Below are positions 15,751 through 40,009 of a stretch of 64,000 nt of DNA, in pieces. This DNA comes from Isurus oxyrinchus (taxonomy: Eukaryota). The stretch covers positions 11,532,001-11,596,000 of the forward strand of contig JANJGN010000038.1 of NCBI GenBank assembly GCA_026770705.1, written 5' to 3'. The position numbers and the translations under genes are program-made. The notes beneath the pieces are model-generated. The model did not search any database. It was not told the origin of the DNA and saw nothing but the letters and a program-made list of their open reading frames with translations. The first letter of the stretch is position 1; the number at the start of each line of letters is the position of its first letter.

Positions 15751-16719
15751 TGAAAGCAGTGAAATCCAACATGAATTCTACACAATACCGAACAATTGTT
15801 GTTGTTTGTACATGTTCCATATGGCTTCCAGCCGCAGAAAAAGAGTTACCTCCTGCCTGACGTGTGAATTCAGAATAATATAACTAACTCTGCATTTTTC
15901 CAGTTAGTTTTTATTTTTTGTCCCCTTTCCAGAACGGGCCTGGTACATTCCCAACTGCCCCTAAGGTCTCGGGGTGTCTCGATTTTCATGCAGGAGACAA
16001 AGTGTCCGACAAAAATGTATAACTTGGCAACAAAGTTTCACCATTAAATGTAGGAACCTTGCTATCCCTCCTTCCTTTGTTTTGGATCTGGATGGCGCCC
16101 TGAAATGGAAAGGAACACTGTCCCCATCCATTGTTCTACATTGAGCAGGCTCCACTTCACACTTGAACTCGTTTTCCCATAAACATAGGAACAGGGAATT
16201 GAAGTGTTACAGACACAGATAAAGTAAACATTTTGTTCACCACTTCCATTTGGCAATGGAGGCGAAATCCGCAGGGTCATCATACAGTACAAGTCACATT
16301 GGCAACAATCTCCCCTTTTAAATGATTACAAATCGCAACTGGCCAGAACAAATAAAAAATGCCAAATTTAATGGAAACATTATCTTCACCATCCACAATG
16401 CACTATAAGAGTTTATTGCCATCCTGATACAGAAACAGTAATTAGAATGAAATTGTGGGTTATGCTTCGCAATGACCCCATATCCCAATCGTGGGTAAAT
16501 ACTACACACTTACTATTATTTGAACTTTCCCGTGTCGTGACTTACAACCGCACAGAAAGTCTTAAGATTGAGCATTGCTCTCAGCAGAAAACCCAATCCA
16601 AGGCATTCATGCTGTGTACATATTATCACTCGTTATGTCTTCCAGTGATAGTTGAAACAGACCGATTGCCCTACACTTTATAAGAGCTTTGCATAAAGAA
16701 TTATGTAGCCGAAAAATGC

Positions 16720-17110
16720 ACATGTTGTAGAAACTTATGGTCTAGCACTCATCAGGACAATTTGCAAGAGTTGTGCCTATTTCAACTGATCAAAAGACGG
16801 GAGAACCAGTCTCTGGCTCATGCCCTCATGAAATGTCTTGACCAATCAGAGTCAACATACTTGATTTGAATGTAAACAATGGTTGACAGTTAACTTCCAT
16901 TCATCAAGTCACTATCGCATTCTCTATTGCAATGCCACAAGTGATCCGTTTTCACTCGCCAATCAATCATCACACTCTTCTCATGACGTTAAAAGTGTTG
17001 TCCATTTGACTTTTTTCTTACTCTTGCGAATTGTCCTGATGAGTCCAAGATGAAAAGCTTCGAAAGCATGTGTATTTGATCAGCACTCTCACATTCTGTT
17101 CTACCAAACA
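16720..17110. mobile_element. Penelope-like element terminal remnant with inverted repeats and a hammerhead-like core
   Basis: ctcatcaggacaatttgcaagag (~16748-16770) is the inverted repeat of ctcttgcgaattgtcctgatgag (17021-17043). The same tail recurs at ~23640 and ~45740. Confidence 0.6.
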
Positions 17111-17111
17111 A

Positions 17112-18512
17112 CGAGTGAGTCTCACGTCAGTGGTCGGGAAACTATTGGAGAAAATTCTGAAGGAAAGAATCTATCTTAACTTGGAGAGAGAAGGTTTGAT
17201 ACGAAATATTCAGCATGGATTTTTCAGAGGTAGGTCATGCCAAAAAAATTTTACTGAGTTTTTGAGGAGATGACCAGGTGTGTAGATGATGGTAGTGCAG
17301 TTGATGTAGTTTATATGGATTTCAGAAAAGCCTTTGACAAGGTCCCAAATGGCAGCCTTATAAATAAGGCAAATGTGCATGGGATACAGGGTAATTTGAT
17401 AAAATGGATTATAAATTGGCTTAGTTGTAGGAGACAGAGTGTGATGACAGAAGGCTGCTTTAGTGACTGAAAACTCGAGACCAGTGGTTTACCATAGGGA
17501 TCTGTGCTGGGTCCCCTATTGTTCGTTATTTATATAAATGACATAGATGACTATGTGAGGAGTATGATTAGTAAGTTTGCGGATGACACAAAGATTGGTT
17601 GGTTGGTTTACAGTGAGGTTGAGAGTCTTGGGCTGGAGGAAGATATTGGCGTGGTGGTCAAATGGGCAGATAAGTGGCAGATGGAATTTAACCCTGGAAA
17701 GCGTGAGGTTATACACTTTGGAAGAAGTAATTTGACAAGGAAGTATTCAATGAACAGCATGACATCAGGAAGATCTGACAAACAAAGGGACCTTAGTGCC
17801 TGTGTCCATAAGTCTCTGAAGGCAGAGCGGCGTGTTAATGGGGTGGTGAAGAAGGCATTTGGGACACTTGCCTTTATCAGTCGAGGCACATATTGCAAAA
17901 GTAGAGGGGCCATGTTGGAGTTGTACAGAACCTTGGTGAGACCACAGTGGGAGAGCTGTGTGCAGTTTTGATCGCCAAATGATAGGAAAGATGTGATTGC
18001 GCTAGAAGTGGTGTAGAGGAGGTACACCTGGATGCTGCCTGGGCTGAAACATTTAAGTTATAAAGAGAGGTTGCATAGACTTGGGTTATTTTCAGCATAG
18101 CAGAGAAGACTGAGGGGCGACCAGTTCAAGGTGTACAAGACTGTGAGGCGTATGGACGGGGTGGATAGGGAGCAGCTGTTCCCCTTAGATGAAGGCTCAG
18201 TCACGATGGAACACAAGTTCAAGGTGAGGGGCAGGAGGTTTCGGGAGGATGTGAGGGAAAACCTTTTTTACCCAGGTGTTGGTGACTGTCTGGAATACAC
18301 TGCCTGAGAGGGTAATGGAGGCTGGTTGCCTCACATCCTTTATAAAGTGCCTGGATGAATACTTGGCACGTCCTTACATTCATGGTTGTGGACCAAGTGC
18401 TGGTCAATGGAATTAGTTAGGTAGGTCAGATGTTTCTCACGTGTCAGTGCAGACTCGATGAGCAGAGGGGCCTCTTCTGCACTGTGCGAACCTGTGATTC
18501 TCTAATTCTGTG
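17112..18512 (+). mobile_element. CR1-type LINE 3' part (RT domain + 3' UTR), decayed
   Basis: VSLTSVVGKLLEKI, QHGF, DVVYMDFRKAFDKVP, LGPLLFVIYINDID, ISKFADDTKI, WADKWQMEFN. Confidence 0.95.
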
Positions 18513-19399
18513 ACTACATATTCAACTCTCCATGAAGTGATTGTCATGATTATAAACAGCAGAATCAAATCTCTAAATTCGCTGACCTATCAACAATTAA
18601 AGTGAATGAGCAACTCTCTTCTCACCCAAACATTGTTTTAATCATTTGCTTATATGGGTGAATGTACTTGAATTTGAAAGAATGGGACAACTGGCAATAT
18701 GCTTCCTCGCCAATGGTGCAACTGAACGATTTCTTACCTGTGGAAACATTTCAATAAATCTCCAGCTGGGGTGGGCAAACGAATGCCTTTCTATGGTCCA
18801 GGTATTTCCAAGGTTTGCTTCTGTAGAGTATGTCCTGTCTCTGCCCAGGTTGGGTAATCCGTTGAAACCTAGTCCACAGACAGAAGTGTTGCAGGGTCTC
18901 TCCCCATTGCAAATGCTGCAACTTCAATTGTAATTCTGTGTAAGTGATTGCAGATCATTGGATAGCCATTGCATTGGAACACTCTCAGTTGGGTGCGTGT
19001 TTTCTTGTGCTTCAAGCAACACCGGCCTTTGAAATAAAATTCCACTGATTGTATTGGCAAACATTGATCCTTTTTTTGTTTTACTTTCTGTTCTCCATTC
19101 CCGGGATCCACTCTCGCAGTTGTCTGAAAGAATTGCTTTTGGATGGTTTTAGTTTTGCATTTACCCAGTAGCCTTTGAGTTCCCCTCCTGAAGATATTGA
19201 CTCAGAGGAAAAGCAAGATACATACAGCTGCTCTAATATTTCCTACAATTCAATTAGCTCATGGGTAATCTATATATAATTTGCATCTCCCCACCTTAGT
19301 TTTATTCTCTTTCAATGGTTTTCCTGAAAGTAGTCAATCTATCTAATTTTCGCATGTTTGATTGACTCCGATTGTCTTTGAACCTTTAGGAGAAAATGG

Positions 19400-20050
19400 T
19401 CAAGGGGCATGGTAACATAGTAATTATTTTAATGGAATAAAACACGAAATCTATTTTATTGATTCGGGACATAATTTAAGATCCCACAGCGATGGCTAAA
19501 ATAGTTGAGTTAAGTTCTCTAAATACAGCTGAAATTAAGAAGGCAAAGAAAAAGAAAAATGACGCATCACGAATAATCACCATGAAAGTATATTCTTATC
19601 AAGAAGGAAGAAAATGCGTTCTGTTTCATTAATGCATCTTAGTGGAAGGATTGTGCTTTAGGTCCCCTGCTTAGTGTACATGTGATTCCCGACACAAAGA
19701 GATGTACTTAAGTGTTAACTGTGGTCTGAAATGGTCGAACAAGCCACTATGAAACAAAAAAAAAAGTAACAGTGTGAGGAACACTCGTGATTTTCCTAGG
19801 TGCTGGAAGTTACAAAGGTAAAGCCAGCCCAATCGATCCTGCAAAGCCCTCCTCATTCACATATTGGGACATGACAGCTGATCCACAAACTAGCCAATGG
19901 AAAGTCTGACATTGTCGGACTCGCCGAATCAAACCATTGAGAAAATGTTCCAAACTCTTCCATCACCAGCTCTGATTATGTGTTGTCACAATGGCATAAT
20001 AACAAAATGTATAGTAAAATGTGGCACGCTATTTGGCCACAACAGGATGG
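19400..20050 (+). mobile_element. 5' end of second-family LINE: SINE-like head/core followed by an APE endonuclease start
   Basis: The core matches the reverse complement of the SINE at 48240-48605 up to aacaagccact. It then encodes LANGKSDIVGLAES...VPNSSITSSDYVLS (APE DIVxLxES-type motif). Confidence 0.5.
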
Positions 20051-20649
20051 AACATTTGTCCTCAAAATCCAAAAGGGCAAAATGACAATTAAATTTAAAC
20101 TATGTTCAGATATCTCTTTGAGTTTTGCGAACAGCAATTAGATCTCTTGGCCTTGAAGGAAAAAGCTTTGTAATCCTGAATACAACAATATCATTGCAGT
20201 AAAAATACTACAATGTGCATTCGTTGGCTAGTAATTATAAAAACGTCTATCTTTCAAATTTGCGCCTACAGTTTTGGAGCCAATGTAGTTTTTAACCGCC
20301 AGGCATCAGAAAGGATAAGAAGTAAAGCACACAATTTCAGTTATTGACCTGTTACAGCCATCTTCTTAATTGGGATGATCCATATAGAAAAGTCGTTTTC
20401 AAAGTGGTCATCATATCAGTAGTTGAATGTTGCAATTGTGATCCATCTTTGAAAGTAATAATACCAGGCATCCAGTGTAGTTATACTACAGATAGAATCC
20501 CATGTGAAAGTGTTTTCATAATTATATGCCAATTTGAATTTTGTCTAGTTAGCAAATCTCATGTGAATTTTGATTGCTTCCTATACTAGGCTGTGCTATT
20601 AAAATCAGGGATTTGAATTGTTTATTTCTTCTTGATGCTTTCACATGTC

Positions 20650-20990
20650 CTGGATGTCACTAAGCAGGCCATCATTTGTTGCCCATCCCTAATGCCTTTG
20701 TCCTGAGTGGCTTACTTGGCCATTTCAGAGGGCAGTTAAGAGTCAACCACATTGTTGTGGGACTGGAGTCACAAGTAGACCAGGCTAATTAAGTGAACCA
20801 GATGGGATTTTACAGCAAACTGTGATAGTTCCATGGTCACTATTGCTGGGGCTAGTTTCATAATTTATGATTCATTCAACGAGTTGAAACTCTATCTGCT
20901 GACGTGGTTTGATTTGATCCTCTGTCTCTAAAGTATTAGCCTTGACACCTGGATTATTAGCTTTATGACAGTGCGATGGCGCCACCATCA
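20650..20990 (-). mobile_element. tRNA-head SINE with LINE-derived 3' tail
   Basis: gcccatccctaatgcc...agagtcaaccacattg...ggagtcaca...ctggattattag; same family as 9150-9450, 48240-48605 and 61450-61750. Confidence 0.6.
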
Positions 20991-22289
20991 TCCCAATGAA
21001 ATGGAGAGAAAAAACATACCGGGAAACAGAGAATTTAAGAAATCACACATACAATTGCGCTGCTTTAGGTTACACTGGGGATACGTATCTCCCTTCAGTT
21101 TACTATTGTACTTCAACCAACATATTGGTTTAATTTGTCCAATCCAGATATTTGAAGAAAGTTTATTTCAGTTTTAAACTATTGTATCGCAATTAACCAA
21201 TTATAAGGAACAATAATTCATCGAAATAGATTAAATTATTTGAAAAGCAAGTACACAAAAATATATCTGCAGTCTCTTTGTCTGCAGTGCTTTAGGCAAA
21301 CTCGCAAAATGGCCACAGCCTTCCCTTTCGGGCCTGAAAATACCTGGGTATATCTCAAGTTATCCTGGAAGACTCAAGTAGCCCAAAATTGGAACTCCAG
21401 GTTAACAAAAAAAATGTTGTCATGATGCAACAGCGACACGAGTGGTACTGTTCACGAATCAGTTGAAGAGAATAGAACAAACCAAGTTTCTACTCATCAG
21501 GCAATTGAGTAACGCCGTGTATGAATTCCAGCACCAGGCAAGTGAGTCAGAGGTCCCAGCGATTGGTTGGTCGAATCAAACAAAATGTCCCTCCACCCGG
21601 TTCATAATATACAGAACAAAGATCCAACTGAAGCAGCCCGCGCTTGTAAAACTTGAATCAAAACTCCAACAATTAGAGACGATTCCACGATTGGTCAGCA
21701 TTCGTTGAGCAGTCTTGAGCGCGCTAATTGCGGCACAGTAGCAAGAACTTCAAGGTGATCCGTCAAGTTGGTCACGTGGCTCATTAAAACTTGTCAGGGG
21801 CAACATGCATTCATAAACAAGGACTGGATCTCTGCAAGCTAAATTAATTTTCCAAGGTCTTTCAAAATTTGTGTGCAGAATTAGGCTTCGCTGGCTAGGT
21901 TAACATTTATTGCCAATCACTAATTGTCCTTCGGAAGTTGATGGTGAGCCGCGTTCTTGAACCGCTGCAGTCCATGTAGTGTACATACAGGTACAGTGCA
22001 TTTAGGGAGGAAGTTCAAAGATTTAACCTCCATGACAGTGAAGGAACGATGATCTGATTCAAAGTCTGGATGGTGTGTGGCTTGGAAGAGAACTTGAAGC
22101 CGATGGTGTTCTTATTCATTTCCTGTGCTTGATCTTCCAGGCAGTAGAGATCGTAGGTTGGTAAGATGATGTCTAAGAAGCCTTGGTAAGATCCTGAAAT
22201 GCATTATGTAGGTTGTTCACAACTGCTGCCTCTTTGCATCGGTGCTGCAGGGACTGAATGTTTGTCGATGGGGTGGTAATAGACAAGTG

Positions 22290-23470
22290 ATAATAAGAAA
22301 TTGCAACATCAGTAAGCCATTCGGCCGTTCAACCCTCCCCCCCCCCATTCAATAACACCATGGCTGATCTGCCCCAGGCCTCAACTCCTATGTACTGCCA
22401 GCTCTCCATGAAGATCAACTCACGATATTTCAATAATCTATCCATCTCTTTTTTAAATACCTTCAGAGATCAAGCCTCCACAACTCTCTGGGGTAGAGAA
22501 TTCCAGTCATTCAATACTCTCAGAGAGAAGATATTCCTTCGCAACTCAGTTTTGTATGAGTGGCCCCTTATTATGTAACTATGTCCCCTAGCTCGAGATT
22601 CCGCCACGAGATCGAACATTTTCTCAATATCCACCTGCCAACAACCCCTCCCCTCAGGATTCTGTTCATCTCAATAATATAATTCCTCATTCCTCTAAAC
22701 TCTAATAAATAAAGTCCTAGTCTGTTCAGCCATTCCTGATAAGTCAACTCCTTCATCCCAGGAATCAGCCTAACGAATCCGCTTTGAACTGCATCTGATG
22801 CCAATATATCATTTCTTAAATACGGGGACCGAAACTGTACATAGCACTCCAGGTGTGGCCCCACCGAAGCCAGCACATTTGTAAAAATACCTCCCTATTT
22901 TTAAAACTGTAACCCCCTAGCAACACAGGCCAAAATGCCATTTGCCTTCTTAATTACTTGTTACATTTGCATGTTGACGTTTTGTGTTTCGTACACAAGA
23001 ACAATCAGATCCTGCATGTTTTTGGGGTCTCTCTCCATTTTAATAATAGTCTGCCTTTTGATTCTTCCTACAAAAGTGAATGACCTCACACTTTCTTGCA
23101 TTAATCTCCATCTGCCAAGTGTTTTTTTTTTTTCCCACTCACTCAACCTATCTACAACCCCTTTTATATTCCTTATGTCCTTTCACAACATGGCTTCTCA
23201 CCTATTGTTGTATCTTCAGCAAATTTGGATACATCACACTCTGTCCGCTCCTCCAAGTCATTGCAATAGATAATAAATAGTTTAGGCGCCAAGACTGATA
23301 CTTCTGGCACTCCATTTGTTGCGTCTTTCCAATGCGTCTGAAAAGGACCCATTAATCCAGACTCTCTGTCTCCTGTGTGTTATCTAATCCTCAGTCCATA
23401 CTAATACATTTCTCCCAATACTGTGAGCTCTTATCTTGTGCAATAATCTTTTACATGGCACCGTATCGAA
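22290..23470 (-). mobile_element. CR1-type LINE 3' fragment
   Basis: Minus ORF 22571..22876 PHLECYVQFRSPYLRNDI...LNRLGLYLLEFRGMR. Confidence 0.9.
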
Positions 23471-24249
23471 TGTGCCAGTCAAGCGCATTGCTTTGTCCTG
23501 GATAGTGCTGAGGTTCTAGACGGTAGGTCATCTTTTGAGTTGCCTAAAATCATGGGGAGCTAACGGCTCTCCATTGCATTCTCCATGGCTGCGCTCGGCC
23601 AATCAGCTTCGAGTTCCTTTGATCGTTTGCAATTCGGGATTCATGATGAGTGCAAGACAATAAGCTTCCATAACTTATCCCTCATTTTCAGCAATACACG
23701 TAATTCTGTACTACCAAGTGACAACTTGTGACAGATGTTCCTCATCCCTGTCATCATTTCAAAAGCTATAAAATCCTTGCAAAATGTTCTTCCCAGAGCT
23801 GGACTCAAATGCTCCAGCTGAGCCAAACCGTTCTTGTGTTTTTATCATAGATTGCTACCTATATAATCAAGCTTCCTGTATGCCGATTTATAAACATATG
23901 GAACATGTATTTTGCTCCTGCAATCCCATTACAATCATATCCTTTATTCGAGTTTTCTTATCCTTATTCTTCATTCGAAGGTGATTCACTTGACAGATAG
24001 CTACGTTAAAGTTAAGCTGCCAACTTGTATGCCCATGTTATAAATCTGTCCATGGTTTTTGGAAGTTCAGCACCCCCGTCACATTAGTTTGCAATATTTC
24101 CAAGTTTTGTCACATCTGTAAGCTTTGAAATTATGTCACGTACACTCAAGTCAAAGCCATTATATATATCCAGAAAAAAGGTGCTGACACCAACTCCTGG
24201 CGAAATCTTCCTCCAATTTGAAACATTTTTTGACTCGTCAGGTCACTTT

Positions 24250-24680
24250 TTAAGAATACCGATGTAAGAGGAAAACAGCAATTTATACTGCATGTGAAGA
24301 GAGTGCTGATTGCTTGGCAAGTGGACTCCGGCAGAGGAATTATCATAGAGAATGCACGAATTATGGCGACTGAAAGTTAACTCCTAAGCTTTGTTTGAAA
24401 TTTTAGCTAGGCAGCTTGGCCTTGATTAGTCAATGCATTGCCTTGAGGAATGAGTCAGCGAATGGCTGTCACTTATTGTATTTAGCTGAACCAGGCACAA
24501 TGTGTGTGCATGTCTTTTCTGCTTGCAAAGAACAGGGCCCTGTGTATTGAAATATGCAGCGTCCAAATACATGCAAATGCACCACTCTGCAAGCCCAACT
24601 GATAATCTGAGTTGGTTGTCAGCGTTATTCCTAGCGCAATTAATTTTATTTAGCAAATGTTCTCGAGTTCCGAATCGCAT
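24250..24680 (-). mobile_element. Penelope-like element, GIY-YIG endonuclease C-terminal remnant and 3' region
   Basis: EHLLNKINCARNNADNQ...LDAAYFNTQGPVLCKQKRHAHTLCL resembles the PLE C-terminus pattern (HLL..C...LEA.YI....P.LC.QK). Confidence 0.7.
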
Positions 24681-27600
24681 CCAATTTTGAACACTGTAAT
24701 TTGAGCTTTACCAGCACTGGCTCGTTGGATATGTTCTGTATTTTGCCCGTTTCGAGGTTCAGCCAGCATCAACATTTGCATGATTTACGTCATTTAGAAA
24801 CATTGTGTTTCACTTTCTTACCGCTAAATTGCACGACTTCACATTTCTGCACTTTGTACTCCGATAGAAATTCCACTCCCTTAACCTTTCGACATCAATT
24901 TTCAGCCTCCTTGCGATCTCCTCACAGCTTGCACCCACACCAAGCCTTGAATCGTCAGCAACTCAATTATTTTCCAGGTCTTTTCCTAAGTGATTAAAGC
25001 AAATTGTAGCAGAGGCCATCATTGAAAGTTGTGGCACTCCACTAGTGACAGCCTGCCAGCCTGCCACCCTGAAAATGCCCGGTAGCCATATTATTTGCTT
25101 CCTCGACATTGACCGATCTTCTACCCATGCTAATGTATTCGCTTCAAACCCATGATTCATCATCTTGTGAACTAACCTTTGTGTGGAATCTCAAGGGATT
25201 TAAGTTCGAAATCCAAGTGTACGGCATCAACTGGTGTCAAAATGTGTCAAAAACGATGTCACTATCATAACCCATGAAGATTTCCTCCAATCATAGCATA
25301 AATATCTTAATTAATTGTTCAGAATTCTAAACAATCGATTCCCACAGTTCCTAGCAACCGAAGAAAGGCTCATTGCAATTCTGGTCTACATGTGGCATTT
25401 ATTTTTTACCATTCCTATCTGTTGAAGTGCAAATACTGTCTGTCTCTCCTATTCGAAACATCTTCCTGGAGCTAATCTTTATCAGGTTTTGCAGTCGTCC
25501 ATCTTCAACAGCTTTGTTCCCTCCACAAATTCAGCCATTGTTGTTGTGTCTTTGAGCTTCGGGACATTATCAACTGCATTAAAAAAATAGGTTCAAATAA
25601 GGAGACTCTAGGATATCCACTTTAGGCCAATTCATCTCTGTATCCATGCCGTATAGGCACTATGCATCAACATGCTAGTAACACCTTGTGAAATATATCC
25701 ACCGATTCTAGCAACTGATTCCTAGATGAACTACGTGCAAGGACTGAAAAAGCCAAGTGTATCGCATCCATTAAATGGATCCTACCTGGTGAAGTTGAAT
25801 GGCACAGACTCCCTTTCATGGACATATATCCACTATATATTGAGATTACTTTGCATCCATCTGTTCCATGGCTTTATTTGCAGCAACGGTTGCTCAGGAG
25901 TACACACTCTGAACATCAACTCAATACTTTGTACTTTCCTGGATCAAATTGGCATCTGCTTTCCTGGAGAACCAGCCACTCTTTAATGGTCAGGACTTTC
26001 TCTTTAATTTGTGTGCGGCACCCTGCAATGTGCTTACGTATTTGCATAAGGAAGCTCGATTGAAGTTAACTGGCCACTTAGGTCGACGAATCAGAATTGA
26101 ATATTGGACAGCTGTTCATTAACCATGTTGATCGCAATGTGACCTGAGTCACAACGATTCTCTGACACACTCTAAAACAAGTCATTTTTTTATCCATTAA
26201 ATGCGTGGAGGTGTTTTAAATATCTGCACGAAATTCGCCTATTCCCACGTCTCTATACCTATAAATGTATGTATTTCTGAGTCCCAATTACTGATCATTG
26301 AAAATTTGTCTGTCTCAATATCCCACTCCAATAACATGAAAAAAAATACAATATTAATTTATTGTGCTCCCTTCGGAGACTGTTTATATATGCGAGAGAA
26401 AATGCTGGACACATTTCGTTGACTGGATAACATCTCTGGATTGAGAACAAAAAAACAGGTAACCATTTCAGGTTGATGAGCTATCAACGGAACTTCAAAA
26501 GTGTTAGGGGTGTTTTATGGACGTGCTAATTGGACATCAGTCAACATGCGTGGACTCTTCAGTGGACATATTCGTGAAAAATTCTTCTTGAACATTTAAT
26601 CACTTGAAATTTCCCAATCATCTGCAAATGTTGCGGCATCTATCTCAATGGGCATTCCTTGATTTGTGGAGCATTACCATTCTGGATGACTCCGAGTCTT
26701 AATCTCATTTAAGATCATAATTTCCAACCAATAGTTTGCCTCGGCTTAATCGTCCTACCACATTACAGCACTTCAATCTTGGTCTGAATTAAGTTACTTT
26801 GCCATTTATCCTCATGTTTTTCTGATATTCTTGTATTTGGTCACATTCATCCTTAGCATTAGCAAAACCTCAACCCTTCCTAAGTTAGCATGGTACGCAA
26901 CTTTTTTTATACTATACTTCCCAGCACTGAGATCAGCTCATTCAAGTCCACGGTCGAAAATGGGGGCTAAAGTTTCTATCCCCATGGATTATTACTGCTA
27001 CTTGGCACCCGTAGTAATAACTATATTCAATTCCTGCTCTCTGTATTTCTTTTCTGTTTGTTTTACTTTGGTAGTAGTGGTTAAAAAACCAATGGGAATA
27101 TCTGGACATTTTAAATAAGTTATTCATGGTGACCTGTGTATGCACAAGCTGAACACGTGGTAGAAGCAGACTGGATAATATTTCTTCCAAAAATGAATCA
27201 CTATTCAGAAAGGAAAATAAATTACTATGAGAAAGAGCATTGGAACCGGACAAATGGATTAGCACTTTCAGGAAAAGGAATAATTGGTGTACTGGCCTCC
27301 ATCTGTGCAGTGCAATGCTATGCGTTGTTATCCATTCAGCTACCGCAAAGCTGAAATAAAATGTTAGTAATTTTATCCTCAAATAAATAAACGGCAATAA
27401 AATGGTAGGCAAACGTACACAAGTCAAAAAAGCAACAGCGTAAACGTAACAAAAGACACTGGATGCTGAAGACCTGAATGTTCTGATGAAATGGCGTCGA
27501 CGTGACACCTTGGCTTTCCATCTTTCTCCTCGTGAGTGTTATCTGTTTCTATCTAATAACAGATACTTTCATATGGATAAATTCCAGCTTCATTCCGACA

Positions 27601-27701
27601 TCGCATGATTTTAAATGTATTACATGATTTGTTGTTGTTATTTTTTTTGCTGAGATTAATTGAGGTTCCCATTGGCCAACCCCTCGGTAATATCCGTGTA
27701 G

Positions 27702-27829
27702 ATTCAATAGACCGCATCTGGATTGAAGGCTATGAGGACGATAACGGGAACATCTGGACAATAGCTCCAACATTCATTGCCCTGTTCTTCCTGAGAATTT
27801 TCGACAGCGCTGCCGTCACTCTGGTAAAG
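27702..27829 (+). other. Immunoglobulin heavy-chain transmembrane exon TM1 (IgM-type), orphan, probably degenerate
   Basis: Acceptor gtgtag|at (phase 1), (D)SIDRIWIEGYEDDNGNIWTIAPTFIALFFLRIFDSAAVTLVK, donor aag|gtgaga. It has an acidic spacer and aligns with the IgM TM pattern NLW.TASTFIVLFLLSLFYS..VTL.K. Confidence 0.9.
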
Positions 27830-27976
27830 GTGAGAATATTCAATCCTAGTGGATTGAACACTACAATCTGACAGAAGCGGTTTGAAAACTTTCTAAACAT
27901 CTCAACAATTAAAAACTATAATATGAATGCACCAGATCATAAACATCTGCTTCATTATTTTCTGCCTCTTTTACAG

Positions 27977-27985
27977 ATCAAATGA
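27977..27985 (+). other. Ig heavy-chain TM2 exon (IK-stop; cytoplasmic tail K-I-K)
   Basis: Polypyrimidine tract ttttctgcctcttttacag|ATC AAA TGA, 147 bp after TM1, matching the K|VK* organisation of IgM. Candidate AATAAA at ~28381 and ~28417. Confidence 0.85.
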
Positions 27986-29377
27986 TCGGTTGAATTTGGA
28001 CCCTGTAGCTTTTCCTCAGCTGTGTATTCCAATATAAAATATGTTGTCTTGGTGATTCTAAAAGTGAAATGTCTTCAATTTGTGATCCCAAATCTGTAAC
28101 CGAACCTGTAGCAGTATTTCCTTTTTCATGTATGAAATGTGCGAGATGATAATGGTTGTAATGTAATTGTAGCATCTAATTTCCCTAGAGTTAGGATTTC
28201 AATTGTAATTAAGTAACGTTTTCATTCGTTATTCATTATTGCCCGCTTCCCTTTCCTTTGAGCCACAGTTTTCTCTTTCTGATCTATGTTCCAGTGGTAC
28301 ATACAATTTACCAACTCAGCGTGCATGTGTTCTGTTCCCAACGTGACCTCAGACATTATATTCACTTCTGTTAACTTTAAAATAAACTTTCTTGTGAAAT
28401 ATTCTCTTATATTACTAATAAAGTAGAATGAAAAGTGGACTAACTGTGACTTTGCTGGATTCCTTTCTCCAAGGCCCATTCACACCGCTCCATTTCCCCT
28501 ATTACACATTTCTCCCAGTTTTACCAGTCTTGTCTGGGATCTGTTTGCACCGAAGACCCCATTGGGCCACCCATCGTCCCATCCGTGTAAGGAGACCTTT
28601 ACCTCTGCCTGTTTCTGGCAATTGACTGAGGCGGAATGATTGAACAGGGAAGGTCACCTCGGTGATTTCACTCTGGGTGGTCACAGTCACGTGTCTGGTA
28701 ATTCTAAACTATAGTGTTCGGCTTCATTGGAGGCTGATATAGGACAGGGAATTGGAGCAGAAAACTTCCTTTAAAATACCCCATCAAACACGCCCACCGT
28801 TGGTGCAATCAGGGTCAGAAAAAGGGTAAAGATCCCTCTGCATTGTCCGTTTAAACACTTTGAAGTTGGGATGCCACAAGCTAGATATATAACACAGGCA
28901 GAATATGGAGCACAAACCAAGGGATGTTTCCAGGGACTGGGGCGTGTCTGGCACTGATATATTATTAAGTACACATCCTGCAAATTATTACAGAGCTTTA
29001 GGTCTATTCGACATACTGGGGGTCAGAACCGTGAAAATATTCAAAGGTGGGGTCAAACTTTATGCTGTAAGTAACCATAAACATGGGGCTTGCTCACAGA
29101 TCCTGGGGCCGATCGGATACTGAGACACTGGCTTTGCATTTTCTCTTAAATAAACAAACAGACGTAGCCCGCACCTCGCCCTGGCCCACCCCTTTCCGTT
29201 TAGCATATACATGGTCCTTATTCGGGTAAACACAGGCCGACTCTCCACTTCCACCTTTTCTGTTAAATCCATTAGGGCTGTCATTCGCCCTTCTGCTGTG
29301 ATAATGAACTGTATTCCTGATCAGCTCATTCCTACTAATACCATCTCCCTGAACTCGCTGAACATCACCCCAGGGAT

Positions 29378-29585
29378 AAACACAGAAAACGCTGAAATTA
29401 TCAGCAGGTCTGATAGAATCTGTGGAGACAGAAACAGAGTGGTCTTCTCGAGTCGTTATGACCCTTCTTCAGATGGACTCGAAACATCAACTCTGTTTCT
29501 CTCTCCTCAGATGCTGTTAGGCCTGATGAGTTTTTCCAGCAATTTTTGTTTTTGTTTCAGATTTCCAGCATCCGTGGTATTTTGC
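29378..29585. repeat. Head-to-head inverted pair of a short Penelope-derived repeat (hairpin-forming)
   Basis: cagaaaacgctgaaattatcagcaggtctg..atctgtggagacagaaacagagt is the reverse complement of actctgtttctctctcctcagatgctgttaggcctgatgagtttttccagcaattttt. Confidence 0.75.
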
Positions 29586-29929
29586 ATTTATCACCACAGG
29601 GATTTCGTTCTACCTGCTTCATCGTTTCGTCAGACGATACTTCAGAGCCTCCCGATCACGGGAATAACAGCAGAAGTTTCTCTTCATATCCCACTATCTT
29701 CCAATGTTTTCCTTCTGAAACAGAGCCACTTTTATCTAATGCCCCAGAGTTCAGGCACGAGGTTCCTTGTTGTTGAATATAGGAAGGGTTAGGCAGAGAA
29801 AAATTACCAACACATCTTCAAGACTCGGAATGATATTTATGAATGAGTGAAGTTAATGCTTAAACCCTTTCTATCTCCAAATCTCTCTCCCTTCCTCTAC
29901 TGCAATGGCATTCAGGGCATCTGAATCAA

Positions 29930-30170
29930 CAACAGAAAAGGTTCCAAAAACTCAAAGGTTCTTAAAGCATCTGTGGAGAAAAATATAGAGTTAACATTTT
30001 GAGCCTGCATGATTCTACTTCAGAGTCTTCTTATCTAAATAAAAGTCGGACAGACTCGAAACGTTAATCCCATCTTTCTCTCCAAAGGTGCTGTTGGACT
30101 TGCTGTGTTTTTCCAGCATTTTCTGTTTTAGTTTTAGATTTCCAGAAACTGAAGCAATATTTTGCTTTTT
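29930..30170. repeat. Second inverted pair of the same short repeat
   Basis: gcatctgtggagaaaaatatagagttaacattttgag is inverted relative to ctcgaaacgttaatcccatctttctctccaaaggtgc. Confidence 0.65.
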
Positions 30171-30219
30171 CCATTCAGGACTTCCCTTGTCTGGTGGCTG
30201 CATTTTTCTTTCACCGCTG

Positions 30220-30655
30220 CCATTGCACATGGGATTGGGGATGATGTATTGAGATGGATAGAAAACTGGTTGTCAGACAGGAAATAAAGAGTAGGAAGAA
30301 ACTGTTCTTTTTCTGAATGGCAGGCAGTGACTAGTGGGCTACCGCAGTGATCTGTGCTGGGACTACAGCTATTCACAATATATATTAATCAATTAGATGC
30401 GGAAGCTAAATGTAATATCTCCAAATTTGCAGATGACACAAAGCTGGGTGGGAGGGTGAGCACTGAGGAGGATGCAGACATGCTTCAGTGTGATTTGGAC
30501 AAGCTGAGTGAGTAGGCAAATGCATGGCAGATGCAATATAACGTGGATTATTGTGGGGTTATCCGTTTTGGTAGCAAAAACAGTAAGGCGGATTATTTTC
30601 TGAATGACTATAAATTGAGAGAGGGGAATGTGCAACGGGACTTGGGTGTCCTTGT
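30220..30655 (+). mobile_element. CR1-type LINE RT fragment
   Basis: HGIGDDVLRWIENWL...VTSGLPQ...LFTIYIN...ISKFADDTKLGG. Confidence 0.9.
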
Positions 30656-31254
30656 TGTTTCAGCAGAATGGATGTGTGAGTGAATCACTTGTAGCCACCG
30701 GAGCAACTGAACAACTGCTTCACAGTGGGAACAGACAATTAGAGTTTCGGCGGATCCATTCTTTCTTCTGTTGTTCGTCCAGGGCTGTAAACATCATCCC
30801 AGGCATTTTCTGCTATGCCCCCGCCCCCTCCACACCGACAGGGAGATCCTGGTGTATTGGTAATGTCACAATGCGGATAAGCTAAAAAGACTGAAGAAAT
30901 GTTCAAACCCCGTTACAGCAACTGGCTGAATTTCCGTCAAAAAATCAGGAGTTGAAACCCTTTCACGAATGGGGATGATTTTGGTCTAAATATGAAATCT
31001 CTGGTAATCTGCAAGAATTCCCCACATTCAGGCGGCTCCACGTGATTCCATACTCACAGCAATGTGGCTGGTCCTGAAATAGTCTGGACACCGTGAGTTA
31101 TATCAAACCGCTGCAGACAAGCCAAACCAGATGGAGCACTTCTCTTCAAGAACGTCCCCACCAACACCTTCCCCAGGGAAATGAGGGATGGCAATAAACA
31201 CTGGCTTTGTCCACAATGCTCCCTTCAAATAAACAATGCAAAAAAAATCCAAAC

Positions 31255-32285
31255 CTATTGCATGGAAACAGAGGAACAGGAGAATGCCATTCAGCCCATC
31301 GAACCTGTCCCACCTTTCATTGTGATCATGGATGATCTTCCACTTCAACATCTTTTTCCCGCACTATCCCCATACCTTTTATATCTTTGGTATTTAGAAA
31401 TCTGCCATTATCTGCTTTAAACATACTCAATGATAGAACTTCCACAGCTCTCTGGGATGCAGAATTCCAAAGGTTTGCAAACTTCTGAGTAAAAAAGCAA
31501 TTCTCCTCATGTCAGTCGTAGTGGCTTTCCACTTATTTTGAAATTGTGTCCCCTGGTTCTAGAATCCCCAACCAGGAGAAACATCTGACCTGCGTTTACA
31601 ATTTCTTCCGTTCAGGTGTTTTGTTTGTGTTGATGAGATGTTTTTGCTCATTTTTCGAAAATCTAGAGAATACAGGTCCAGTGTCCCCAATCCTTCTTCA
31701 CAGGATAGTCACACCATCCCTGATGCAAGTCTGGTGAGCCTTCGATTCACTCCCTCAATGACAATTACACCCTTCCGAAGGTAAGGGGGCCACACCTGCA
31801 CATTGTACCCGAGGAGTGGCCTAACCAAGATTATATACAAAAGAAACGAGACTTCGCTACTGCTGTATCCAAATCCTCTTGTGATAAAGACTGACATTCC
31901 ATTCGCCTTCCTAATTGCTTCATATGTATGTGAGGTTTCAGAGACTTATTGATGAGGGCACCCAGGCCCCCTTGCACAGCTACATTTTCTTGGATCTGAC
32001 GTTTTATGAAATAATCTGCACATCTGTTGATCATACCAAACTGGTTAACCTCACATTCTTCCAGGTTAAATTTAATCTTTTCTGTTCTGTCCCCATCACT
32101 AAGTCAGTCCAAATCGCCTTGAAACTGCTTTTCACCTTCCTCACAACACACGTTCCCATCAAGCTTTGTGTCATCCTCCAACTTGGAAATATTAATTTGA
32201 CGCACACATCCAAATCATTGATATGTTGTGAACAGCTGGCTCTCAAGTGGTGTTCCTTGCAGTACCCCACTGGCCACATGCTGAC
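31255..32285 (-). mobile_element. CR1-type LINE 3' fragment
   Basis: Minus LVRPLLGYNVQVWPPYLRK, INDLD and the CR1 3' tail at ~31260-31330. Confidence 0.85.
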
Positions 32286-33186
32286 AAAGTTTGATATTTC
32301 ACTCTAAACACCCCCCCCCCCACCCCAGCACCACAAACCCCACAACAAAAAAGCCCCCACTTAGGCCGCCAGCCCCCCTCACCCCACACCTCACACTTTG
32401 AAATGACATGCTTCAGTTACTGCTGCAGCAGGAGGAAGCCTTTGGATCACCTAAGAGTGCCACAACACTGATGGAAGCCCTTGAAGCATTCGTCTGTTTC
32501 TCGCTACACAAAGGTAGCGAGGGCTGCTGATTATTCCCAGCATTTCTGTTTTTTTTTCAGATCCGAGCACATTGCACCCCCCCCCTCTCTCTCCTCTCCT
32601 GAACATCCTTTTTCAGGCTGGGTTCAGAGTGACATTTGAATTGACGAATTTCACTGGAACATAACTTATGCAGTGGAAATACACCATTATTTGAAACGAG
32701 GAGACTTGCCGCTCCGAGGTTCTGTAACTGTTCAGCTCTAAAAACACTGGAATAAAATCACAGAAAGAATTTGAAAAGCTAACATCACTGACCTTCGAAC
32801 CTCTAGAAAACACCGTCCCATCTGCAGATTGGTCCGAAATGTTTTGAACAAGGTTTCCCTGTGATACTGCAGCATGTCCGCCCCTGGACTGTAACCTGCC
32901 TGAGTGGCTTTTTCCTCCAAAACCCCTTTGCGTAATGACATGAAACTCGAGCCTGGTGGGTGGGAATTTCACACACCATGCCCAAGGACAACAGGAGAGT
33001 TGGAATAGCCTGAAAACCAGCAGGACAAACAGGACTGAGGTAAATTACTTCCCAAATGCACCGTTTCTGTTAGTCATTGAATCCTGGCGGTGAAAGATGA
33101 AAACTGGCCTCACCCTGTGCTCATCACCGAGGTGAAGAGATTGGGAATAAAACAGGGTCAACTCGTATTGATAATGGATATTCTTG

Positions 33187-36100
33187 TCACTGTTTAATAA
33201 ATTTAACAATTACAGAAAAGGGATATTTCACCACATTCTTCAATTGCTGAATTGAGTCTGGGTCACTGCATAAATGGCCGTGTTAGTGCAACAACTTAGG
33301 AGCTGAATTTAAATCCCAGTTCCTGCACAAACCTAGGAAGGTATACAGGAATAGCATCTAACAAATATAGTCTATTACAAACAAAATGTATCATAAAAAC
33401 TACCCACAACAGGATAAAATTCCCCGATAAAGCAAATAGTAAAATGATGGATTTCCTGCGTTTCTCCATCTGTGGGTCCCTGGGTCTCTCCCCACTGCAG
33501 TGAGCCCGGAGTCTCCTGCGGCCTCTGCTCAACACTAAAATATATCTGACAGTTAAAGCGTTCAACATCAAAATCAAAACAAGTGGCGCAAATGGTGTTA
33601 AAATATAATGAAGACATTCGATTGTTGCCCACATTGATGAGAATTCAGCATCCGTCACTAATGTGCAAAACCAAGGAGCATTGGAAAGCGAATATTGACC
33701 TACATACATAAAGTACCAGAATGTATCCTTCACACAGAATAGCAGACTGACTGTTCCGAGAACCACAGCCGCCACATGCTCTGTGCAATATTTTTTTTCA
33801 ACTTCTGGGAACAAATAGCCAGAAATCTATCAAAGGTGAAAGAGACTGTGAACCAGACAGAACAATCTGTGGCCGCATAAAGCAGGACTGCATGGATATT
33901 ATACACTTTAAACCTCGACAAGAACTGAAACTGAGCCCAGTAAATAATAGCAATTTGCCTGAATATGAGATCAAGGATAACGACCAGTAGATCCGCGGTT
34001 GCCATGGACACCAGGTGAAGGGAAAGACATTTTGAGAGACCGCACCTTCCCGGAGACAGTGTCACAATAGTCAGTATGTTCACTGTAAGGAAGAGAAAGG
34101 CAGGATAGTTATTGTTTAACTTAGAGCAACGGTTACAGACTGATGGAGTGACATTTGAACAGAGTTATCCAAGGTCAGAATCTAATTACTTTACCAGTGC
34201 TTCAGCTTTATGCTGGAGGGAGTGTTTCGAGTTAAACACCATCCTGTTGTAGCAGGAAACCAAATCCTGCAGCAGGTCCCATCGCCACTTCCCTAAATTA
34301 TTCATGGAATTCGGAGTGAAAATCATTCACCCCATTACTAGTCCTGCTCAATATCCCATGAACATGCTGCAAACTGCATCACAACGATATGTAAGATGGG
34401 CTGTGATTTGTACTGAAGGAAAATGGTTCATTTGTTTTTGAGAAGACATTTGAGTGGAACATTAAGGTTGTGTAAAGAAGTAAATACAGATTTGAATTCA
34501 GAAATTGTATTTCAAATCAGGATGTCCAAATGTGCCTTGCTGATAATTATTGACTTCGCCAAAAGGCACAATGAACGCTTAGACTGTATCCCAGTAACAA
34601 ATAGACTCTCGAAAATAGATAAAGAACAGGGAGATAAATGGATCGCTAGACTGAAGAAAATAAATTAGAGATTGAATCAGAGCTGGATATTGGCCAACAC
34701 TAAGGAACAGCAGAGAGTGGCAGAACCCAAAATCAGGCTGGCTAGCAGGAGAGAATTTACCAATGGATCGGATATCTGTGTTTTGGGCCAGGAATTAAAT
34801 GGGCCAGTGGTTGGGAAATGAAGTTGTTACATAAGAATGCAAGAACTAGGAGCAAGAGCAAGCCATATTTCCCTTTGGCCAACTCTAATGTTCACTAAGC
34901 CCATGGCCATTCTTCGACCTCTACTTTCCAAAACTATCCCCATTTATCTTAATGGCCTTAGAGCAGAAAGACCTACCGACCAACAGCCCTCGAGAGTTGA
35001 TAATTCCGAAATTTCTCCACTTTCTGAGTGAAGAAGATTCTCTTCATCTCAATTCCAAATGGCCGACATCTTATCTCAGGGATCGAGTTCTCGACTCCCC
35101 ACCTAAGGGAAACATTCTCTCAGCATCCATGCTATGAGGACACTAAATGATTTTCTGTGACACGATGAGATAATCACACATCCTTTCAATTTAAGAAGAT
35201 GCATGTCAAATTTGATTGATGGATTGATTACTTAAGTATATTTTTCCTTAGGCAAGGAGGCCAAAACTGTACACATTAATCGATATGTTTTCTCACCAAT
35301 TACATGCATAATTCTATCAAAAGTTCCTTACTCGAATACAGGGAAGACTGCCATTTATTATCCTATTCACTTGCTATATTGCTGTATCCTAACCTCATTA
35401 CAGCTTTGTTTCAAACATGGAAAAAAGAGCTGAACTCCCGGGGGAAGGTGAGAGTGGCTCCCCTTGACATGAAGGCAACATTTCGCAGAGTGTGGCATCA
35501 AGGGCCCCCAGCAAACCTGGAGTCAATGGGAATCAGGGGGGAAATCTCTGCTGCTTCTAACCATACCTAGCAGAAAGGAAGATGGTTGTGTTTGTTGGGG
35601 GTCGATCATCTCAGCGCTAGGACTTCACTGCAGCATTCCTTCAGGGTACTGTCCTCGGCCCAACCATCTTCAGCTGCTTCATCAATGACCTTCCTTCCAT
35701 CACACAGTCAGAAGTGGGATGTTCGCTACTGATTTCACAATGTTCAGCACCACTAACGACTGGGGTACTGAAGTAGCCCATGCTCAAATGCAGCAAGAGC
35801 TGGACAATTACCAGGCTTGCACTGACATGTGGCAAGTATCTTGTGCACCGCTCAAGTGTCAGGCAATGACCATCTCCAACAAGGGAGAAACCAACCATCG
35901 CCCTTTGTCATTCAATGGCATTAACATCACTGAATCCCCCACTATCAAATCCTGGGGTTTACCATTGACCAGAAACGGAAGTGAACGAGCCATATAAATA
36001 CTATGGCTACAAGAGCAGATCAGAGGCAAGGAATATTGCGACGTGTAACTCACCTCCTCACCGCCAAAGCCTGTCCATCATCTGCAAGGCACAAGTCAGG

Positions 36101-39100
36101 AGTGTAGTGGAATGCTCCTCCCTTGCTTGGATGGGTGCAGCTCCCAGAACGCTCAAGAAGCTTGACACCATTCAGAGCAATGCACCTCGCTGGATTGGTA
36201 GCACATCCAAAAATATTTACACACTCCACCACTGTTGCATAGTAGCACCAGTGGGTTGCATCTCCAAGATGCACTGCAGGAACTCATCAAGGCTCTTTCA
36301 GCTGCACGTTCAAACCCCGACCACTACCATCTAGAAGGAGAAGGGGAGCAGACAGATGTGACCGCCACCAAACGGAAGTTCCCCTTCAAGTCATTCACCA
36401 TTTTGACTTGGAAATATATCGCCGTTCCTTCACTGTCGCTGGGCCAAAATCCTGGAATTCCCTTCAGAGCAGCACTCTGGGTGCACCTACACCCCGAAGA
36501 CTGTAGCAGTTCAAGAAGGCAGCTCAGCACCACCTTCACAAGGGCAACTAGTGATGGGTAATAAATGCTGGTCCAGCCAACGAAGCACATTTCCCATGAA
36601 TGGATAATAATAACACATATTGCATGTTCGCTTTCTCTAGATTGTGTACTCGAGCACCCAAATTATGAAAATTTACAATTTTTACCAGTTTCTCGCCTGT
36701 TTAAACGCTGGATGAGGATAGAATGAACCTCGTCTGTGTTATTATCTCAGGGAATCTGAAGGTTCTGGTGCAATATTAACACAGGGCTTTGATGCGTGTG
36801 TAAATTAATATGTGAGATAATTCATAAAATTAATGGTCCTGGCCTCCCATTTGGTGGCGATACTCGGATAATCAGCACTGATTGTAAATGTTATTAAAGC
36901 CCTATCTTTTTCCACCCTTGCAGCTTGTTTTTCTTGCCTACGTAGCGGGGAGGGGGAGATGAGGTGTGTATGACATGCGTAGATGGCGGGTGATCAGCAG
37001 TTGGGATTGGGATGGGTGAGTAGTTAACCTGCTTTGCAGTCGGTTGGGGGTTGAATGGACGGGCGATGGTTAGTGAGAGCTGTGCAAGTGGATCGACGGG
37101 AAGGCAATCGAGTCAGATTAGATATTCTGGGGTCAGCAGTTGGGGGTGTTGTGGGTTGCTGTGTGTGGGATGAATGTGGGAGTTCTGTAGGTGGGGGTTG
37201 GGCGTGCATGGGCTTTGCTTGAAAGTTATTCACTGACACATGCTAGAAATTAATAGCGGGAAAATACTACGCCAAGCATCTGTCACACAACAGGCACAAC
37301 AGTCCAAAACTAAAGGCAGTATTGGAGTCATTGTTAGAGGGGCCTGGGCAATACAAATCTGCCCATCTGAAGTTTAAAGTTCATGGGAAATTACCATGCA
37401 TGCTCCTGGATCAAGATTTCAGATGGGTCCTGATATGCAGAGCGGCAGACATTGCAATATTCACCACTGTTGGCATCAGGAGTTCCGGTTAATGATATAG
37501 TCAGTATTAATTTCACGGCAATGGACTCCAGACACCAGCTGCAGAAAGAGGGAAATTGCACAAGAGCGAAATGGAGATCAGGTCAAAGAAGGCTGGCTTA
37601 GGGCGAATAACAATAAAGAACACATTTTAAGAATTATCTTAAAGGATGATAAGTTTGTGGCGAGGACAAAGGATTTAGGAGGAAATTCAGAACATGAAAC
37701 TCTTAATATTTCATTGTGGTCACCCATGACAAAGGCTGCAGACATGTCGAGAAAAGGGAAGAGAGGCAGCTCGACATTAGCAGAGTCACATCAGATATAA
37801 TTTGTGCCTTTGCTAAGGACGGTGTAAGAGTTGTAATAAGGTAGAAAAATGGTTAGAAAGATTTAAGCATGGTGTCCCTGGAAGATGGGGCAGAAACGTG
37901 GGGGGTAGCAGCAGGGACAAGGAATTTGTAGAGGAAAGAGAGGTTAGAGATGGACTGTTTGCTTACAAGGACTGAGGCAACAGGGGTTGCTTATTTACAA
38001 GGGCAGGGGTAATGACTACAGAATGGAGCAGCAAAGAACAGTAGCTAAGCAGATGGAACTATTAATTATATCAGCAACTGAGGAACATGATGAGGAAGTT
38101 CGGTGTTCAGCAGTTTGGTGGGAGTACGGTGAACCAGTCCCCACCAGCAGCCGCCCCTCCGCCCACATCCTACACCATGCCTCCCATCAACCCAATCAAA
38201 CGCCTGGAAATCTCGCATCTGAAACATAATGGAACTCTCACTACTCATCAGTATGGTTATCAGAGCAACACCCAATAAATAGAATCACGTTCAATAATGG
38301 AATAGATTTTCCATCAGTGTCCGTCCATCATTAAACTTGCTATTTCTCCACCTCCACCTCTGTGGATGCAGGAAGAATGTCTACAGAATCAACTACAACA
38401 ACACACCGGGGCTACTTCGACAGCACGTACCAGCACAGCAAAATGCAGAAGGTGTGCAATGCCGTGAGATTCACCTTCTCTAACGCACCATCCTGACTTG
38501 GAACGGTAACCTCTCCCTTCATCAGCGTTCCGGAATTCCCTAACAGCAGGTAGGAGCACAGTCAGCAGAGGGAATACTTCAGCTCAGCAAGAAGACTCAG
38601 CACCAACTTCTCAGCTCACTTCCGGATGGGTAATAAATGGAAGTTTGTCACAAGAATCCATTTCCCAAGGACACATTTTGAAAATAAAAAAACTTTGGGA
38701 GGGGGATAATGATTTGCAGCTCTAAATAACGTCATGCAGAGACAAGGGAAGGAAATTAAGTCTATGGTCAGAAATGGGAACGGAGCCAATTTTTGGTGAG
38801 GGGAGCAAATATTGTTGAACAATTATTACATTTTGAATTCTCTCCTAAATATCTAAATTTGGTTATTGTTAGGCAAAGCGGGAGATGGTGGAATGGAATT
38901 TGCCTGGAGCTGAATTATTATGTGAGATCTTCCCTCGTTCCTGTCTGCCCTAATTTCCGCAGATCAGGGCAAATTACTATCTGCATCGCACTGCAAAACC
39001 AATACCTGCGCAACATATTCTGCTCAGATATTGGGGTTCAGTTTAAACAGCAGACTGCAGCTGTTCAATAGATATAATTCATCACTAATATTTATTGCGT

Positions 39101-39449
39101 AAAATATTACACCAGCCAAATTCTGAAGAAAAAAGTCACTTGAAGCAAGTCTTGAGATGTACAAACGGTCCAATGAACTGTGAACAGTGAATCAGCAACT
39201 GCTGAAATGCTACTTCACAGAAGCACAGGGCATTACATGTCACAGGACACAAAAATTACAGAGAATAAAATTAATTAACTCACGTTAAGGGCAAGGACAA
39301 CAAACATGGTGAAAGATGTTTTATAAAATAAGTTTCCAAAATAATCACTCACCAGGAATGCCAACAGCAGCGAGGAGCGGAAAGTAAATCCTTTGCAAAT
39401 CATAAATCACCCAGACAATCCGAAGTGCAGTTGGAATTTCAAAGAACAT
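33187..39449 (-). pseudogene. GPR139-like two-exon GPCR pseudogene (exon 1 39449-39353, exon 2 34082-33187)
   Basis: Exon 1 MFFEIPTALRIVWVIYDLQRIYFPLLAAVGIP g|gtgagt. Acceptor ccttacag|tg aac. Exon 2 VNILTIVTLSPGRCGLSKC...DCSVWFTVSFTFDRFLAIC...DPQMEKRRKSIILLF...QLLSCCTNTAIYAVTQ...KYPFSVIVKFIKQ*. Three frameshifts at ~33795 (A8 run), ~33308 and ~33248. Confidence 0.92.
35385..36605 (+). mobile_element. Second-family non-LTR retrotransposon (L2/CR1 group), RT + 3' tail, inside the GPCR intron
   Basis: VRVAPLDMKATFRRVWH, PQGTVLGPTIFSCFINDL, MFATD (FADD equivalent), KAQVRSVVECSSLAWMGA; tail gggcaactagtgatgggtaataaatgctgg. Confidence 0.9.
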
Positions 39450-40009
39450 GATCTCATTTGCTGTGAGATCCAATGATCGCTGTTTATACTGGCAACCACA
39501 CTCTGTCAAACACCCATATACACATTGAAAACATTGCCTAGATATAGGCGGAGGAGAGTCCTGGTGATTCAATTAAACAATACACTGGCTGGCATTAATT
39601 ACAGTCACTTAACAAACAAGATGCCTTAACCCTTTCATCCCATCACTTTGTATGGAAAAAATATACTAAAATCTGCATGGCATTCCTATTCAAAGCAAGC
39701 ACGTGACGTCAGCCACTTTTGTGATAAACAGGTTACGGAATTCTGCAGGCTTGCAGCACAGATAAGAAAAGAAAAACAGACTCAAATCCAGAGCTTTGAT
39801 TATTCCGGAGATAAAATGCTGCCAAACAATTTCATGGTTTCAATTAATTTCTCAGGGGGTGAACACAAGTGCCAGAGTATGGACAGAAGCAGTAACTGTC
39901 CAAAAGGATGCATAGTTGATCATTGTGTAGTGATCAGAAAGGGAAATAGTAGACTGATGATTTGAAACTGCTTGGTTTAACAGTAAACGTAAAACTGATG
40001 CTATGAATC

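Follow-up and report, generated by a model that had tools for sequence, protein, structure and literature searches.

What are two short transmembrane (TM) exons of antibody type, TM1 and TM2, doing without constant-domain (CH) exons in a region that also holds T-cell receptor (TCR)-type V segments? They lie in the 64,000-nucleotide stretch analyzed in the present study (the window; G000:C38:11,532,001-11,596,000) of a 4.98-Gb genome. The exon pair is the 3' end of a shark-type IgM antibody gene. We concluded that it is very probably a non-functional 3' IgM fragment, broken 20 bp before TM1 and carried as a passenger in a duplicated block with 33 copies. This reading is based on the IgM origin of the exons, the sharp left junction, the retained intron, the junction common to all copies, the loss of the TM tyrosine, and the lack of CH exons nearby.

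The features of the window are summarized in Table 1. The splice sites that the initial annotation had described as intact are all present. Its open frame was also found; however, the function of the exon is not intact because Ser15 and Tyr18 have been replaced. In the PDB, the TM1 peptide matched membrane IgM heavy chains best (all of the top six, best E 6.5e-4), and the TM peptide matched nothing in a protein database at E <= 0.01. The TM1 peptide is 79% identical (33/42) to TM1 of the intact IgM clusters of the same genome. Three intact clusters were compared: C38:6.78-6.81 Mb, in which VH, JH, CH1-CH4 with the tailpiece, and TM were seen, and C38:9.12-9.14 Mb and C26:33.59-33.61 Mb, in which VH, three CH domains, the tailpiece, and TM were seen. 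TM1/TM2 are closest to clusters that have four CH domains and an IgM tailpiece. By blastn, 27682-~29420 is 84-85% identical over 1.7 kb to the intact clusters at C38:6.80 Mb and 9.14 Mb and 76% identical to the C26 cluster, and the fragment had no match in 50 kb around one IgNAR cluster. Since the identity to IgM flanks extends into non-coding sequence, an origin from IgW or IgNAR is unlikely. A conventional IgM transcript contig (run X7, presumed RNA) is spliced at borders equivalent to 27829/27977. The presence of IgM miniclusters and an IgNAR cluster in this genome is a hallmark of shark-type cartilaginous fish.

Table 1. Features of the window (positions from its first letter).
Feature	Position	Strand	Remarks
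Third GPCR-family gene region	1-630	-	rhodopsin-type
Amplified block	11685..54696	+	tandem repeat directly downstream at C38:11,596,252-11,637,300, 89-97% identity
Rhodopsin-family GPCR gene	14770..15750	+	in-frame stop at 15094-15096
Reverse transcriptase (LINE-type) remnant	17258..17968	+	Pfam RVT_1, E 4.9e-7
Non-IgM flank joined to the IgM fragment	25600..27681		seen only in copies of the amplified block
IgM-derived 3' fragment	27682..29420	+	20 bp of intron, TM1, intron, TM2, 3' UTR, downstream flank; blastn
TM1 acceptor AG	27700-27701	+	read from the sequence
IgM TM1 exon	27702..27829	+	128 nt, phase-1, open frame; Ser15->Arg, Tyr18->Asp, Ser6->Pro (mouse mIgM TM numbering)
TM1-TM2 intron	27830..27976	+	147 nt, GT..AG, GT at 27830; homologous intron spliced out in the conventional IgM contig
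IgM TM2 exon	27977..27985	+	9 nt, Ile-Lys-stop, preceded by AG
Two AATAAA signals	28381 and 28417 (28381..28422)	+	spacing as in the intact IgM gene
Second GPCR gene	33296..34164	-	split over two frames
TCR alpha/delta-type V	46692..47180	+	likely leader 46692-46728 with in-frame TAA, open V exon 46835-47141
RSS of the TCR-type V	47142-47180	+	23-spacer, non-canonical heptamer
Second V segment	49895..50179	+	contains stops

The initial annotation had found no CH exon, secretory tail, or VH upstream, and our searches agree. None of these was detected by tblastn in 264 kb around TM1 (128 kb upstream and 136 kb downstream). The queries were the VH and CH1-4 of IgM and the V and C domains of IgNAR from the same genome; the shark C-domain search proposed earlier was thus performed on the interval and its flanks with the IgM and IgNAR domains. 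The only matches in the 264 kb were TCR-type V segments and three TM exons, and nucleotide searches of the same 264 kb with IgM/IgNAR exons gave no match. Of the 82 open reading frames of 52 aa or more between 15751 and 27701, none contained a Pfam Ig domain; the CH4 used as a control was recognized with E 3.9e-21. We rejected decayed CH exons directly before TM1 on the basis of all three types of search. Near-consensus RSSs were absent from the window apart from two weak sites. Judged from these VH, CH, and RSS searches, TM1 has neither the VH/D/JH segments nor the CH1-CH4 exons and secretory tail that precede it in a functional IgM minicluster. The upstream interval had been described as mostly transposable-element debris. 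It does contain the reverse transcriptase remnant; however, it is only partly recognizable as such, and 25600-27680 is specific to the amplified block. The blastn matches to IgM regions at 17.8-23.4 kb were repeats, lying outside exons and recurring at several places.

The left end of the fragment is a sharp junction. In the alignment, homology to intact IgM begins abruptly at 27682, approximately 20 bp before the TM1 acceptor. The adjoining flank is restricted to copies of the amplified block, both at 27080-27680 (33/33 candidates) and at 25600-27080 (34 candidates). An empty site for either part of this flank was not found in the assembly, and a deletion and an insertion therefore look alike here. 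The fragment keeps its intron and flanks and has no poly(A) tail, as an unprocessed fragment would. With its intron, its UTR, and the two poly(A) signals preserved, it is a DNA-level copy rather than a processed one, and the retained TM1-TM2 intron led us to reject retroposition.

We infer that an IgM cluster of the C38 type suffered a single DNA break in its CH4-TM intron, so that the tail lost its connection to the promoter, V-D-J, and CH exons. The tail would then have become attached to DNA of the GPCR region and been a passive passenger as the block, with its GPCR pseudogenes, IgM tails, and stray TCR-type V segments, was copied many times. In one intact IgM cluster, the CH4-TM intron contains a 2.3-kb CA repeat (C38:6,800,600-6,802,907; L054:600-2907). 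Since the left ends of three independent CH-less tails, described below, all fall 0.7-2.0 kb downstream of the position of this array, the CA repeat may favor breaks. The open frame and splice sites have probably survived because the target is small (128 nt and three dinucleotides) and the copies are only approximately 6% diverged.

In the assembly, the 600-bp sequence that precedes the junction was found at 33 places (13 on C38, 9 on C42, 3 on C20, and 8 on seven smaller scaffolds). The TM segment was recovered with all 33 copies of this flank, and the junction is common to all of them. The block is a mosaic: besides the IgM tail, it contains two GPCR genes, the first with a stop and the second split, as well as one V segment and one decayed V segment; the genes next to the IgM tail are therefore damaged as well (a stop in the GPCR gene and in the V leader). 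The GPCR genes of the window resemble the 'GPR139-like' annotations of sharks. Together with approximately ten more in the flanking 200 kb, they form a large family of rhodopsin-type GPCR genes, many of which are damaged, dispersed among Ig and V fragments. Positions 726-11647 and 54695-63966 form an internal duplication with 77-90% identity at the edge of the tandem unit. One orphan copy (C42:6,744,876-6,748,283; L019) is placed apart from the orphan clade in the tree, and its alignment with the window is interrupted near 29377, like that of intact IgM; it is possibly a recombinant or converted copy, judging from its sequence.

The tail in the window is not the only one of its kind. A second CH-less IgM tail, which kept approximately 1.4 kb of the intron, lies 54 kb upstream at C38:11,505,476. 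A third, with approximately 0.5 kb of the intron, lies 42 kb upstream in the two block copies checked (on C42 and C20), and no CH match was found near it in the 30-40 kb fetched for each copy.

The TM1 exons of the orphan copies differ from functional ones at a key position. The polar core of the IgM TM consists of Ser15, Tyr18, Ser19, and Thr23, and the window copy has Arg15 and Asp18 in this core (mouse mIgM numbering from the alignment with the PDB matches). Tyr18 is lost in 33/33 orphan copies (32 Asp, 1 Asn) and kept in 22/22 intact-type copies. According to the portion of the report available to us, substitutions at Tyr18 and Ser15 impair the assembly of mouse IgM with CD79 (PMC9860311). 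A frameshift or stop is present in 3 of the 33 orphan copies, and the frame is open in the other 30. The helix is still hydrophobic, with a best 19-residue Kyte-Doolittle mean of 1.85-2.32 vs 2.16.

The orphan exon varies to the same extent as its surroundings. Divergence between orphan and intact copies is 10.9% in the exon, 10.7% in the intron, 10.5% in the UTR, and 10.8% in the flank. Variable columns among the 33 orphans make up 34/128 of the exon vs 356/1217 of non-coding sequence (p 0.61). Among the 22 intact-type copies, the corresponding figures are 9/128 vs 158/1160 (p 0.037), showing that the exon is protected there. Distinct non-synonymous variants in the orphans numbered 25, vs 35.9 expected from flank rates with CpG included (p about 0.03), after the exclusion of one copy with a 22-nt deletion; an alternative estimate gave a ratio of 0.45-0.59 (p 0.01-0.06). 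These counts use the functional gene as the reference and ignore relatedness and gene conversion, and we regard the shortfall as a weak hint of constraint at the sequence level. Synonymous variants numbered 17 vs 12.7 expected, an excess for which changes on the functional reference lineage or gene conversion involving the numerous intact IgM genes could be responsible. The three splice dinucleotides are kept in all 33 copies, for which the chance figure is approximately 10% (42/90 control dinucleotides were kept).

Transcripts were examined in contigs from four runs presumed to be RNA (X7, X8, X10, and X16), three of which (X7, X10, and X16) cover TM1. At the diagnostic sites 27767 and 27769, 32/33 orphans differ from functional IgM; the orphan letters are C at 27767, A at 27769, and, at a further site, G at 27803. 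The whole depth at both sites in the three covering runs carried the conventional IgM letter, and an X10 contig of the conventional form runs from TM1 into the end of CH4. Orphan-type letters were not seen in these contigs, which drop rare variants. Conventional membrane IgM is thus present in the presumed-RNA data, and the orphan form was unseen there, which does not amount to proof of its silence. The junction check suggested in the initial annotation consequently gave a divided result: the TM1-TM2 splice was observed at the expected borders, but in a conventional contig and not with orphan-type letters.

The V segments of the window bear on the nature of the region. Searches of protein databases with the V segment returned only distant, mostly unnamed V domains, and its type therefore rests on comparison within the genome. 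Its closest relatives outside its own family are V segments on C26 and C242 (41-49% identity). In a tree of 13 sequences, it falls outside the starred VH clade, and its placement among the TCR V segments was not resolved. The family has 30 copies including that of the window, 88-100% identical and located among IgM clusters; the V frame is open in 24/30, and the likely leader has an in-frame stop in 6/6 aligned copies. Older V paralogues (88-91% identical; C26:5.96 Mb, C49:0.80 Mb, and C38:10.46 Mb) correspond to the block in their V part only, and no TM was found within the 30 kb fetched for each. This suggests that V and TM were united by the assembly of the block. The earlier statement that the TM exons cannot follow these V segments is geometrically wrong because the tandem block places the next TM 35 kb downstream of the V. 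Splicing from the V into the next tandem copy was nevertheless rejected, as the V of the window has no phase-1 donor before its stop.

All 15 TRAJ-type pattern matches were on C242, with a dense TRAJ array at C242:660-730 kb. C38 holds many intact IgM clusters (many TM and CH4 exons) and an IgNAR cluster. A TCR alpha/delta locus has its V array in cis with TRAJ and TRAC/TRDC, and here TRAJ is on C242, not on C38; what C38 does combine on one linkage group is IgM, IgNAR, and TCR-type V segments, as the antigen receptor complex (AgRC) of elasmobranchs does. Given the TRAJ array on C242, the richness of C38 in IgM TM and CH4 exons, and V segments that are stray copies, the region is best read as part of a field of IgH clusters with stray TCR-type V segments, not as an IgH relic in a TCR locus. 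At C26:23-40 Mb, many TCR-type V segments likewise alternate with IgM CH4 and TM exons along approximately 17 Mb. A 10-kb IgNAR stretch at C26:680,001-690,000 is 99.2% identical to C38:13,287,114-13,297,106; from its sequence, it may be a recent duplicate or an uncollapsed allele, with a possible link between C38 and C26.

Other explanations for the exon pair were weighed against a passively copied fragment. The initial annotation had proposed a novel membrane anchor, in which an unrecognized upstream exon is spliced to TM1 in a new transcript. We consider this recruitment improbable. The preserved splice sites (33/33), frame (30/33), and poly(A) signals are consistent with it, as are an acidic residue at position 18 in 32/33 copies and the mild shortfall of amino acid changes (p about 0.03). 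However, the exon is no better conserved than its flanks, tblastn and Pfam recognized no upstream coding exon, the same-strand GPCR gene upstream has a stop, no phase-1 donor precedes the stop of the V, and the RNA-type contigs show conventional letters only. Moreover, the two main orphan clades altered the N-terminal half of the helix differently, one with a Lys. Under recruitment, the helix Asp would interact with a basic residue on a partner other than CD79. The same low probability applies to the view that the 33-copy family represents a weakly constrained recruited IgM anchor, in which Asp replaced the CD79-binding tyrosine and charges pair as in TCR/CD3 or activating receptors. Recruitment retains this small share because of the non-synonymous shortfall and the splice dinucleotides kept in every copy; the proposal otherwise found no support in the contigs or in the variation of the exon. 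It is highly improbable that an intact IgM cluster far upstream uses these exons as a remote alternative TM. They have splice sites and poly(A) signals, and intact IgM genes occur on the same strand of C38, but no CH exon lies within 128 kb upstream, another orphan TM intervenes at 54 kb, each intact cluster examined has a TM 3.3-5.9 kb beyond its CH4, and the RNA contig joined to CH4 is conventional.

The initial annotation had also suggested the last remnant of an IgH cluster in a TCR alpha/delta-like region. The IgH part of this suggestion stands, with IgM as the isotype, whereas the TCR-locus part does not. Decay of a cluster in place inside a TCR alpha/delta locus, which we regard as even less probable than recruitment, would agree with the TCR alpha/delta-type V 19 kb downstream and its relatives on C26 and C242, and the IgNAR stretch shared by C38 and C26 suggests that the scaffolds may form one antigen-receptor complex. 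The sharp junction without a trace of CH shows a break rather than gradual decay, and the TRAJ array on C242, the intact IgM clusters of C38, and the older V paralogues without a TM, which indicate that V and TM were joined by block assembly, also argue against it. An assembly artefact in the junction or the copy number is the least credible explanation. Over 3.4 kb, some C38 and C42 copies reach 99.4-99.9% identity; these may be uncollapsed alleles, and 33 is thus an upper figure for the number of loci. On the other hand, orphan copies differ by up to approximately 11% and form well-supported clades with the same junction throughout. A contig of run X5 spanning 27663-27799 with 3 differences also crosses the junction, although with only 19 letters on its left side (tool rule: 31); the contigs of run X1 do not reach across it.

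The IgM fragment resembles the 3' part of an elasmobranch IgM minicluster (VH-D-D-JH-CH1-4, secretory tail, TM1, TM2) in its TM exons, intron, UTR, and poly(A) signals, with approximately 85% DNA identity. In contrast to a minicluster, it retains only the final 20 bp of the CH4-TM intron and nothing further 5', and Tyr18 is lost in all orphan copies and Ser15 in the window copy. Pseudogene clusters of nurse shark IgH (groups 6-8 and G2C) are likewise non-functional IgM-derived loci among functional clusters; as described in the accessible part of that study, they bear VH, whereas the present tail is V-less, CH-less, and amplified in a block (PMC2435157). The AgRC of elasmobranchs has been described as an arrangement in which TCR alpha/delta-type V exons lie between clusters of IgM and IgNAR, in linkage with PSMB5, UrIg2, and TCR constant genes and with coordinates in four species in table S1 (PMC12227049). 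C38 conforms to it in its IgM, IgNAR, and TCR-type V segments. Neither CH-less TM tails nor GPCR genes nor a block of 33 copies come up in the portions of that account available to us. The intermixing of Ig and TCR segments in sharks has therefore already been described (PMC12227049), and we add nothing new on linkage; the fragment, which had been put forward as possible physical evidence of Ig-TCR locus mixing, is not new evidence in this respect. Another source refers to Ig-TCR linkage, in the part available, in general terms only (PMC3964593). IgH-TCR delta chimeras (trans-rearrangement, NARTCR, and TAILV) are also known and, like the present region, have Ig and TCR parts in one neighborhood. 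As far as the available sections describe them, they combine an Ig-type V with TCR delta D-J-C (PMC12227049, PMC5931798), whereas here an Ig TM tail lies beside a TCR-type V without a J, a C, or any sign of a joint product. A literature survey, mostly at the abstract level and with subscription papers and supplements largely outside its scope, found no report of CH-less IgM tails in an amplified block.

These results give a picture of turnover in the shark antigen-receptor region: breaks at the CH4-TM intron have repeatedly detached IgM tails, which were copied in large blocks that also hold GPCR pseudogenes and stray TCR-type V segments. Their significance would be much greater only if a spliced transcript of the orphan type were found; otherwise, they are a small piece of genome anatomy. 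Counts of IgM and TCR V genes that are based on TM or V matches in the present assembly are inflated, as 33 TM matches belong to one CH-less family and approximately 30 V matches to one V family. Approximately 28 further TM matches in which the last residue is unmatched look like copies of the second and third tails, judging from the five checked (C38:11,505,476; C42:1,655,922 and 1,669,054; C20:77,593,012 and 77,606,084).
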